IMG/VR virus record: IMGVR_UViG_2698536657_000017 | Location: 1 to 35,026 of that record | Strand: one strand, 5' to 3' | Length of the DNA: 35,026 bases | Source of the DNA: a virus | Lineage: Duplodnaviria; Heunggongvirae; Uroviricota; Caudoviricetes | Part shown: in pieces, positions 12,001 through 15,000 of the stretch | Numbering within the stretch: position 1 is the first letter of the stretch | Layout of the letters: every line of letters starts with the position of its first letter | Program-made: the position numbers

Positions 12001-15000
12001 TGAGGGAGTTCGCTTCAACAGCCAGCAAAATTATAACGGGCGCATGTTCCAGTCTCTTTATGCCCTGGCGACCGACGACAAGGGAGAACTGTGTTACCTG
12101 CATCAGACATTGCTTGATGGAGCTAAAAAAGCAGACATTGGTATCAGCGCCAGAAGGCTCAAATCTTTACAGGACGATAACTATCTGGACCATGCCCGGT
12201 CAGTTGCTATCAGGATGTTTCCGGTAGCCAGTACACTGGGTATAGCTGAAGGTATCGAAACCGCGTTGTCCGCACATCAGATTTACAAAGTAAATACCTG
12301 GGCAACCATTAACAGTGGTTTTATGAAAAAGTTCCGCGTACCGGCGGGAGTCACCCATCTGATTATTTTTGCCGATCGCGATGAATACAGTGCTACCGGA
12401 ATGGCTGCGGCCTGTGAATGCGCACATGCAAATCTCCAGGCCCGAAATGACATTCAGCGGGTAAGTGTCCGGTGGCCTGATCATGATGATTTCAACAATA
12501 TGCTCATGAACGGCGATCAGGTTCGGGAACTGGTTTTTTACAGAAAAAAGGCGGTTGCGTGATGCGTACGGACAATCAGGTACATAAAGCTTTATTCACT
12601 ATCCCGACGGCAGCGTACAGCGCCGTTCCGGCAAATATCAAACCTCTGCCAGAACAAAGGAGGATCACCGGACATAAACAGACAGATGCTTATCTCTGGA
12701 TTCTGGAGGTTATTCACCTGAACGAGGCCGTACATCTGGACGCAGCCGAAGCAGCACTGGAGAAACTCAAAATAACGCCGGAAGAAGCGAGTGAACGGTA
12801 TGGACGTTATTTGCAGGAGATTAATGTTGATCCTTTCCAGATTGCTTTCGCAACCATAGGCATAGATAACCCGGCGCAGGCGATCAGGAATGCCCGTGAG
12901 AATATCAAAAAAGCCGCATCAGTCAGGGCCACATTTGGCAGCTATGAGGCAGCACTCGATGATGTGGAGGCTGAGCGGATAATTCGCACCTCCCCGAAAT
13001 TTATCGACGATTACTACTGGGGCTGGACTGCGGCAGAGAAAAAAGCCGGAAGTATTGACGGTGTTCGCTCAAATGAAATTGATGATCAGCGTCGTGCATA
13101 TGTTGATGGCTATCGTGATGTACTGCCAGAGCCTCATACATTGTCAGACGTTGTTCGTGAGTTTATTTACTGGGACTGGCTTTATGAGATGCGCCAGACA
13201 GCGGGGAGAGAAACAGGGGACAAATACGGTTTCACAGGTGAACATCATGAGTCAGTATATGATCGGCAGTTCTGGCTCGAAAATTTGCTGGGAAAAATAA
13301 AGCCTGTGACGCGTGATGAAGCGGTTGAAGTGTGTCGCTGGTTTCTGGCAAGCGGAAAAGATGAGTACATGGAAGACAATGGTTCAGCGGTCATTCTCAA
13401 TCTGGTTGGGGAGTGTGAGCAATGAAGCCGGAGATATCCAGTAGACATTTTCCCCCTGAGCATTCAAATCAGAAAAAGTATGGTTACAGCGGAGTACAGA
13501 ATAATGCGTGATATCCAACAGGTTCTGTCCCGATGGGGTGCATGGGTGGTAAATAATCATGAGAGTGTGGCATGGTCCGGCGTCGCTGCCGGATTTAAGG
13601 GAGTGATCCCATCAAAGGTTAAATCACGGCCTCAGTGTACCGATGATGATGCGCTGATTATCAGCAATTGCATGGCGCAACTGAACGTCAACAACAGCGA
13701 TTTGCATGATTTTCTGTATGATTATTATGTGTTCGGGATGACGCTTATGGGACTGGGCCGTAAGCATGAGCGCTCTGATTGCTGGGCCGGGCGGGTACTG
13801 CAAAAAGCTGAAGGTGTTATTGAGGGGATGTTGATTATGCAGGGAATAAAACTGGAAATGGACAGATACGTTGAGCGTGAACGATCAGGGGCACAGGTCA
13901 GTCAGTTTTCCGGACATACGGGAAATTGAAAGCGCGGGGTTTTACTGTAGAATGACTGCGGGTGCTTGAGGGTGTCTGCCTCGGGCATGCTGCCGTAAGG
14001 CAGACGGAGAAAAGCCCCAGTTAACATTACGCGTCCTGCAAGACGCTTAACATTAATCTGAGGCCAATTTCATGCTGAACACATGTAGGTTAGCCTCTTA
14101 CGTGCCGAAAGGCAAGGAGAAGCAGGCTATGAAGCAGCAAAAGGCGATGTTAATCGCCCTGATCGTCATCTGTTTAACCGTCATTCTGACGGTACTGGTA
14201 GCGAGGAAAGACCTCTGCGATGTACGAATCCGAACCGGCCAGACGGAGGTCGCTGTCTTCGTAGACTACGAATCTGAGAAGTAAGAGACCTGGCGGGGGA
14301 GTAATCTCCCGCCCCCTCTGATGTGTCAGGCATCCTCAACGCACCCGTACTTTAGTTGTCATATGCTCCGCAAAATGCAGGTTGTCGTTGCAACCCGTGC
14401 GGTAATTTTTTGTGTGCGAGTGCTCAAAAAACGTTGATTTTCATAAAAGGACGATTTTATGCTGCCAGACCAGCGACCAGCGACCAGCGACCGTAAATCA
14501 AGAAAGTCTGTAAAATCTGTTGAACCAGACATTGCCGACCGGGCTAACAACTGGCTCAAATCTTATGGACTTGATTACAAACTGGAGCAGGCACCACTTA
14601 ACAACGAGATCGATAACGCACTGGATGCTTATTTTTCGAAAAATGGCGGCACAGGCGGTAATCGTCCCGACGTAAAACTCCTTGTTCAGGACAAATACGG
14701 CAAGCAGTATCCCGTTCTCATCGAGTATAAAGGCTACAAGGACAGGCTTATCAGACTTGGCAGCAACGGTATTATTGAGAACAAAGATGCCAGAAAAGAA
14801 TGGAATTTTAAAAATATTAATGGATACGCGGTGAATGGCGCAGTCCATTATGCCAACGCACTTCTTCAGTTCACCAATTACCCTGATATTATTGCTATTG
14901 GTATGACCGGCTGGCGCGATGATGGTACAGGCGAACTGCATCATGAAATCGGCGTGTGGTACGTATCAAAGAATAATTTAGGAGCCGGGCAGAAGGTTGG

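Follow-up and report, generated by a model that had tools for sequence, protein, structure and literature searches.

The question addressed here is whether a short heptanucleotide repeat, (GACCAGC)n, that directly follows the start codon of a putative Type IIB restriction-modification (R-M) gene acts, or once acted, as a phase-variation switch. The gene lies in the IMG/VR virus record IMGVR_UViG_2698536657_000017 (Caudoviricetes), which we analyzed over a stretch of 35,026 nucleotides, referred to below as the window. A preliminary description of this sequence had located the repeat just after the start codon of a nuclease-methyltransferase A subunit, had pointed out that a change of one 7-bp unit would shift the frame of the entire protein, and had ranked the repeat, with its three to four copies, as a weaker candidate than an 8-bp tract. 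Our analysis indicates that the locus is most likely a slipped-strand phase-variation switch and that the window carries a genuine, contracted allele of its hypermutable repeat, with the A subunit ON and effectively locked in that state; we assign this joint reading a probability of roughly two in three.

The position given for the repeat was borne out by Tandem Repeats Finder, which reports a perfect GACCAGC array (period 7, 3.6 copies, 100% matches) at 14468-14492, and by direct reading of the sequence: ATG(14459) CTG CCA is followed by GACCAGC GACCAGC GACCAGC GACC and then by GTAAATC. These 3.57 units begin at codon 4 and end on the first base of codon 12 in the open reading frame (ORF) 14459-16543 (plus strand, 694 amino acids). 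No other perfect period-7 tract of at least 25 nt exists in the whole window, none of 300 shuffles produced such a run, and the analytic expectation is 5.5e-7 per window; a chance origin of the repeat is excluded. A start upstream of the tract is backed by a Shine-Dalgarno (SD) sequence and ATG that are conserved in every context of the repeat, and by the alignment of homolog N-termini. In the window, the SD sequence AAGGA (14447-14451) ends 7 nt before the ATG, and an invariant TTGATTTT precedes it at 14434-14441. We also considered a tract located in the 5' untranslated region of a gene with a downstream start, and rejected it: no ATG, GTG or TTG separates the tract from the conserved SVEP...WLKSYGLD N-terminus, and the downstream starts found in annotations were ruled out as true starts because they cut into conserved sequence.

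The unit length has a direct effect on the reading frame. Because 7 equals 1 modulo 3, translating the repeat in any of the three forward frames gives one and the same heptapeptide, DQRPATS, and no stops; past the tract, one frame is open (683 amino acids), while the other two stop within 0-7 codons. Simulated gain of one unit yielded a product of 14 amino acids and loss of one unit a product of 15, as expected if a single-unit change frameshifts the whole A subunit, and the gain or loss of three units kept the full-length frame. Natural in-frame alleles encode proteins of 905, 917 and 966 amino acids. Tracts with the GACC junction are in frame at 4, 25, 46... nt, which makes the 25-nt tract of the window the smallest non-zero in-frame (ON) allele, with three full units.

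The preliminary description would have taken the absence of the repeat from homologs, together with an invariant length, as evidence against a switch; we found the opposite. We searched 5,426 complete Escherichia coli genomes with a 321-nt query, which 28 of them matched in full, always as two pieces that together span 412-990 nt. With tract length computed as this span minus 296, which was exact in 10 fetched loci, the 28 genomes carry tracts of 116-694 nt, or 16-99 units, and across a total of 30 complete E. coli genomes the Type IIB locus has 16-120 units after SD-ATGCTGCCA. In the phage PhiR12_3, 83 perfect units come after the same SD-ATGCTGCCA, two chromosomal prophages have 94.6 and 16.6 units, and 56, 58, 76, 83, ~93, 99, ~102 and 120 units were found in further relatives. 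Unit number differs by 2-27 between prophages that match without a single mismatch over 1.5 kb of upstream and 2 kb of downstream sequence (56/83/58, ~93/83/99, 83/76 and ~102/120), and locus L005, with 3.57 units, differs from L002, with 94.4 units, by one mismatch in the flanks. In the 28 complete genomes the enzyme frame is joined to the main ATG in six cases, to an upstream ATG in 10, and to neither in 12. Many draft contigs end within the tract.

More distant homologs (72-74% identity, Neisseria and Providencia) lack the tract and start with MTQASKKSNKSIEP or MTQASKKSNKSIEPNIADL..., and window residues 4-12 fall into gap columns in most homologs. Because the tract-less homologs align straight to the post-tract sequence of the window, the tract is a hypervariable insertion that separates the start codon from the conserved N-terminus and is specific to the enterobacterial prophage lineage. 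A search for the leader pattern in one genome per species gave no matches, and a protein search with a pure (DQRPATS)n query returned six fragments only, a result limited by composition filtering. A BLAST search with leader and tract alone, to which low-complexity masking applied, likewise gave no match. The Neisseria-type homologs P0078, P0095 and P0109, which have no 7-bp tract, show an in-frame 9-bp N-terminal repeat difference of their own (SKKSNKS, SKKSNKSNKS or SKKSNKSNKSNKS), so that their length varies without a frameshift.

The locus therefore combines a perfect repeat, a unit that is not a multiple of three, a position inside the ORF and downstream of its start, a unit number that varies between close strains, and unit changes that shift it in and out of frame. 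In the mechanism we propose, slipped-strand mispairing would add or remove 7-bp units, and the unit number modulo 3 would decide whether the ATG joins the enzyme frame; one unit class in three would be ON, the other two would terminate soon after the tract, and the outcome would be translational ON/OFF phase variation of the A subunit. Frame switching by unit number is seen in silico and between strains. Slippage itself we infer, with support from the same repeat, which, as CAGCGAC[n], varies in length within populations of E. coli that produce Shiga toxin (STEC) in a Type III mod gene, according to fragment-length data (PMC5909438). The ranking of the repeat below the 8-bp tract holds for the contracted allele of the window but not for the locus, which, with 16-120 units in close homologs, is predicted to be at least as strong a phase-variation site.

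For the window allele itself, a fixed ON state seems a better reading than a working switch. Few units would mean rare slippage, which would leave the A subunit effectively locked ON. The remark that three to four copies are few for efficient slippage agrees with locus L031, which has 20 scattered substitutions relative to the window between 11090 and 15610 and yet has the identical 25-nt tract and the same ACG at 14451-14453; because L031 keeps the tract despite these substitutions, the short allele is probably stable, and the A subunit is probably ON, stably so. Three full units barely reach the survey threshold of at least three, and no variation was seen in the sole other strain with this allele. 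Contraction has occurred more than once, as L005 also has a 25-nt tract, is ~2.3% diverged from the window and lies one mismatch from the 94-unit allele. In other lineages, in-frame alleles that are likewise short (3 or 2.7 units) or have decayed are found, namely in L046, L045, L043/L044 (MLPNQRPTNKSRK) and P0128 (MSSDQRPATNKSRK, seen on 16 contigs). We do not take the enrichment of ON states among short alleles as a sign of selection, which would be unsafe given the retrieval bias described below and the fact that 21/25 nt is in frame for both junction types.

Several observations weigh against a genuine and locked short allele. None of the 30 complete (long-read) E. coli genomes falls below 16 units, alleles of five units or fewer occur in draft or metagenome assemblies only, and the lengths at which draft assemblies pass through the tract (21/25, 35, 63 and 133 nt) are minima for common k-mer sizes. 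Several short alleles were retrieved via proteins, which biases the sample to ON, and the stability argument rests on two strains (n = 2). Exactly 83 units are found in L001, L023, L026 and L028 (ECOR13 phage, Germany, Nebraska, Chile), which implies that long tracts are not always unstable; the recurrent length may be an ancestral allele that is stabler than expected. Finally, at least three units is a published in-silico criterion for phase-variable tracts (PMC7383803), so some switching is possible.

The first three of these observations bear on an assembly artefact, in which a long real tract of tens to ~100 units was collapsed by a short-read assembler and neither the 3.57 units nor the ON state is biological. 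Such shortening is documented for this repeat, whose deposited lengths were always below the measured ones (PMC5909438). The window length also has the value a collapse would give, as the right-register lengths of at least 21 start at 25 nt (at 21 nt with the other junction type), and the draft lengths of 35, 63 and 133 nt fit k = 31/33, 59-63 and 127. Contigs of the window lineage (one mismatch in 2080 nt) break at the tract, which indicates that long alleles exist in this lineage. However, two assemblies from different strains share this 25-nt tract, and a long 7-bp tract would be expected to break a contig rather than to collapse: L052 and L053, of the window lineage, start within the last 2-3 nt of the 7-bp tract but cross 80-112 nt of 8-bp repeat, and the end of the L031 contig, which stops 1 nt before the 8-bp tract but crosses the 7-bp tract at 25 nt, matches this behaviour. 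L005 pairs its 25-nt tract with a 208-nt 8-bp tract, which implies that its reads or k-mers greatly exceeded 25. If Logan contigs are built at k = 31, the 4-unit allele P0008 (28 nt, shorter than k) is not a collapse product; the decayed L044 tract, with its substitutions, cannot have arisen in this way at any k. Based on these last two cases, short alleles are real in this family, and we consider a collapse in the window unlikely. A further argument, that tracts of 25 nt and 63 nt cannot both be minimal at one k, was dropped, as reads could span 63 nt.

Somewhat less probable than a collapse is a working switch, in which 3.57 units slip often enough to generate biologically relevant OFF subpopulations. 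Three units equal the published threshold for tetra- to octanucleotide tracts, a one-unit change leaves a product of only 14-15 amino acids, and the tract family is demonstrably unstable; moreover, 7-nt loops are thought to escape MutS-dependent repair. Against frequent slippage stand the tract shared by the two strains despite their 20 flanking substitutions, and the 3- and 2.7-unit alleles (L045, L043/44, P0128), which lasted long enough to acquire point mutations. In other systems, switching rate reportedly scales with unit number (De Bolle and colleagues, 2000). That the repeat is an ordinary coding repeat, either a short flexible N-terminal peptide without regulatory role or a product of chance, is very improbable. 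The window tract is indeed short and in frame and adds ~8 residues, and distant homologs also have short, variable, lysine/serine-rich N-termini; but, apart from the shuffling result, the repeat is conserved as perfect units at the DNA level, the variation is by whole 7-bp units rather than codons, the repeat is out of frame in most complete genomes, and one DNA module stands before three methyltransferase families that are unrelated.

A different refinement concerns the relatives. At the position of the window ACG, most Type IIB alleles have an out-of-frame ATG, 8 nt before the main ATG (AAAGGATGATTTTATG), so that two unit classes might give full-length protein at differing levels; the window would then have lost the second state of a three-state switch. 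Comparable multi-level switching has been described for the Haemophilus lic loci. The 10 of 28 complete genomes with the upstream ATG in frame fit such a scheme, and gene callers do use this start (MILCCQTSDQRP... in P0008 and P0011; the PGAP coding sequence 4033-6252 in L003). The upstream ATG, however, overlaps the SD sequence and lacks a separate ribosome-binding site at the usual distance; neither the Type III and EcoRI-family contexts nor L007 and L034 (ATA) have it, and we regard a third state as doubtful. The contracted, ON-locked allele remains our preferred reading for the window.

The repeat and its leader are not confined to the Type IIB gene. An identical ATG CTG CCA leader precedes the tract whether the gene is a Type IIB, a Type III mod or an EcoRI-family methyltransferase gene, and in an alignment TTGATTTT and TATGCTGCCAGACCAGC... 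are invariant across the three contexts. Among the 5,426 complete E. coli genomes, 39 contain this cassette: 30 in a Type IIB, eight in a Type III and one in an EcoRI-family context. On conjugative STEC plasmids, ATGCTGCCA(GACCAGC)n heads a Type III mod gene (PF01555 + PF12564, with Res), as in L004 (plasmid NZ_JBXHCO010000002.1, 2355-4328; 11 units), and this system appears to be the published M.Eco131I. On the E. coli A34 chromosome (L032, 4002-5813), 99 units stand in frame before an EcoRI-family methyltransferase (PF13651), which is followed by a GmrSD_N/HNH endonuclease and has a Q gene directly upstream. In lambdoid prophages, the cassette genes of the Type IIB and EcoRI-family kinds come immediately after Q; the Type III mod gene is carried by conjugative plasmids. 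In L021 (IMG/VR UViG_2802429224_000017, minus strand, bases 1-99), the leader and two units precede another ORF (MLPDQRPATTENRKTNKNRKNHISDQAHENLKK...), cut by the contig end; this context (MLPDQRPATTENRK...) is possibly a fourth gene family behind the cassette, and a search for a longer contig with it found none.

In E. coli, phase variation driven by repeats is regarded as rare, and the searchable literature holds one case, the plasmid-borne Type III mod gene. That the same cassette also precedes a prophage Type IIB enzyme and a methyltransferase of a third type suggests a switch that the defence systems of mobile elements share and can exchange. We tentatively propose, at somewhat less than even odds, that SD-ATGCTGCCA-(GACCAGC)n is a portable cassette exchanged among at least three unrelated R-M systems of E. 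coli mobile elements, that the long perfect tract may provide homology for the exchange, that contraction to three units is a recurrent route to locking the gene ON, and that the state of the switch might affect the late transcript of Shiga toxin (Stx) phages.

The closest known system is M.Eco131I, the STEC Type III mod gene (PMC5909438), which has the same heptanucleotide in another register (CAGCGAC for GACCAGC), the same ATGCTGCCA leader, and the same upstream TTGATTTT and SD sequence as the window. There, too, the tract directly follows the start of a methyltransferase gene on an E. coli mobile element, and its units vary between strains. In contrast to that Type III Mod (PF01555 + PF12564), which acts with Res and is encoded on conjugative plasmids, the window encodes a PF02384 nuclease-methyltransferase with an S subunit in a lambdoid prophage; the cassette is shared, the gene family is not. 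The published work covers the Type III gene only, and our literature search returned no paper on the Type IIB or EcoRI-family contexts and none for the repeat as a 14-mer. The mechanism, repeat-mediated phase variation of R-M systems, and the repeat are known, while the host gene and the replicon are new.

The Type III mod phasevarions of Haemophilus, Neisseria and Moraxella likewise have a repeat with a unit that is not a multiple of three in the 5' coding region and switch ON and OFF by frameshift, and among them alleles of few units behave as fixed (PMC5909438). Their tracts are, however, tetra- or pentanucleotide repeats, whereas the family described here has a 7-bp unit and up to 120 units (840 bp), an E. 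coli host and a prophage-borne gene for a combined nuclease and methyltransferase; any effect on gene regulation is putative. Coding repeats also set R-M expression or specificity in the Campylobacter jejuni Type IIG gene cj0031 and in Type I hsd systems (surveyed in PMC7383803), but these are mostly homopolymers or short units in small-genome pathogens, unlike the window system, with its 7-bp ON/OFF tract in the catalytic subunit and 8-bp tract in the specificity subunit.

The description of the gene product as a nuclease-methyltransferase A subunit was supported by domain and motif searches. The ORF contains an N6_Mtase domain (PF02384, E 5e-21, Pfam) and, at its N-terminus, a weak VRR_NUC (PD-ExK) match below the cutoff, and an alignment showed that P70-D71...E89-x-K91 and NPPY498 are conserved across 117 homologs. 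With the A subunit as query, a PDB sequence search gave no match and an NCBIfam search only sub-threshold HsdM/MAD2 matches. The PV340552 phage homolog is annotated by its depositor as 'BcgI alpha chain-like'. As in BcgI, an A subunit with PD...ExK and NPPY methyltransferase motifs is accompanied by a separate S-like subunit, predicted to have two recognition domains; the likeness is one of domain architecture and depositor label, and double-sided cleavage by the window enzyme is putative. To our knowledge, BcgI has not been reported to be repeat-controlled. We conclude that the module is probably a BcgI-like R-M system of Type IIB architecture in a late-operon cargo ('moron') position of a lambdoid prophage. 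The exact 694-amino-acid protein is also encoded by E. coli GCA_001608155.1 (L030), which is identical to the window over 6.5 kb, and GCA_016146275.1.

The specificity gene contains the second tract. Its first half matches Methylase_S; the second half has no Pfam match in the window but has one in its homologs. The two halves would share a frame at another number of 8-bp units. Across the window and its relatives (L002, L003, L005, L043, L045, L049, L052, L053), GCGGACTC is present in 4.9, 5, 7.9, 9, 10, 14, 16.9 and 26 units. L049, with nine units, encodes a full-length S of 389 amino acids with two recognition domains, and S is also full-length in L022-24 and L034; in the window and six other loci, S stops just past the 8-bp tract, so that it has one domain and the second half forms an ORF of its own. 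Because the 8-bp tract in the S gene varies too, the R-M system seems to have two independent repeat switches, the 7-bp tract in A and the 8-bp tract in S. Ahead of its first canonical start, TTG 16603, the S frame is already open (16546-16612) and has a typical recognition-domain beginning, SVEWGEFRIGDLF, which no ATG, GTG or TTG precedes in this open frame.

Features of the window around the R-M module (positions in the window).
Feature	Position	Strand	Remark
Antiterminator Q	13480-13929	+	
Promoter-like site TTGAAA-16-TAGAAT at the end of Q, where lambdoid PR' sits	13926-13953	+	consensus match only
sok RNA	13960-14134	+	directly upstream of R-M module
hok/gef toxin ORF	14072-14284	+	directly upstream of R-M module
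Antisense ORF across the tract, 66 aa	14359-14559	-	judged non-gene
Conserved 5' leader: A-rich run, invariant TTGATTTT, Shine-Dalgarno	14426-14458	+	
A subunit, N-terminal PD...ExK nuclease motif fused to N6-adenine methyltransferase, 694 aa	14459-16543	+	
Leader ATG CTG CCA (start and two codons)	14459-14467	+	conserved
GACCAGC x3.57 tract (3 full units and GACC)	14468-14492	+	encodes DQRPATSD
S/B subunit, first half (Methylase_S)	16603-17139	+	stop just after 8-bp tract
GCGGACTC x7.9 repeat inside S gene	17075-17137	+	
S gene, second half, second target-recognition domain	17202-17723	+	

Short-read assemblies break at the tract or are shortened by it, and any copy number or ON/OFF call based on a draft genome, that of the window included, needs confirmation by long reads or PCR. 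The tract also misleads annotation, through truncated A-subunit starts and spurious proteins on the opposite strand. The A-subunit coding sequence of L001 (3840-5801), for example, is annotated from a start inside conserved sequence. Equivalents of the antisense ORF lengthen with the tract in long-tract relatives, and public minus-strand calls over the tract are named 'YXWGXW repeat-containing protein' or 'hypothetical protein' (L002 4078-4758, L022 3480-4247 and similar); one minus-strand tract ORF is even noted as an EmrB/QacA-type transporter.

We read the window as a lambdoid prophage with R-M cargo in its late operon because Q, a PR'-like site, sok and hok/gef lie upstream of the module. 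A promoter scan of the interval between hok and the ATG found none, and its sole match was the PR'-like site at the end of Q. In relatives, the module is placed between Q and stx2b (L003; stxA2b 8297-8412) or between Q and a RIP/SLT_beta pair (L049; 4108-5343). Placement between Q and stx puts the module inside the late transcription unit that drives stx. Just past hok, the window has a G+C-rich inverted repeat without a T-run (GGCGGGGGAG TAAT CTCCCGCCCCC, 14283-14312), which may be a 3' structure of the hok mRNA or a late-operon terminator, and ~55 nt from 14300 are 94.5% identical to Stx phages such as 933W. Downstream, between the R-M module and a SASA-family esterase gene (19158-21068), lie two tandem copies of the small RNA STnc100 (Rfam RF02076) at 18465-18670 and 18732-18945, with scores of 153 and 200 bits.

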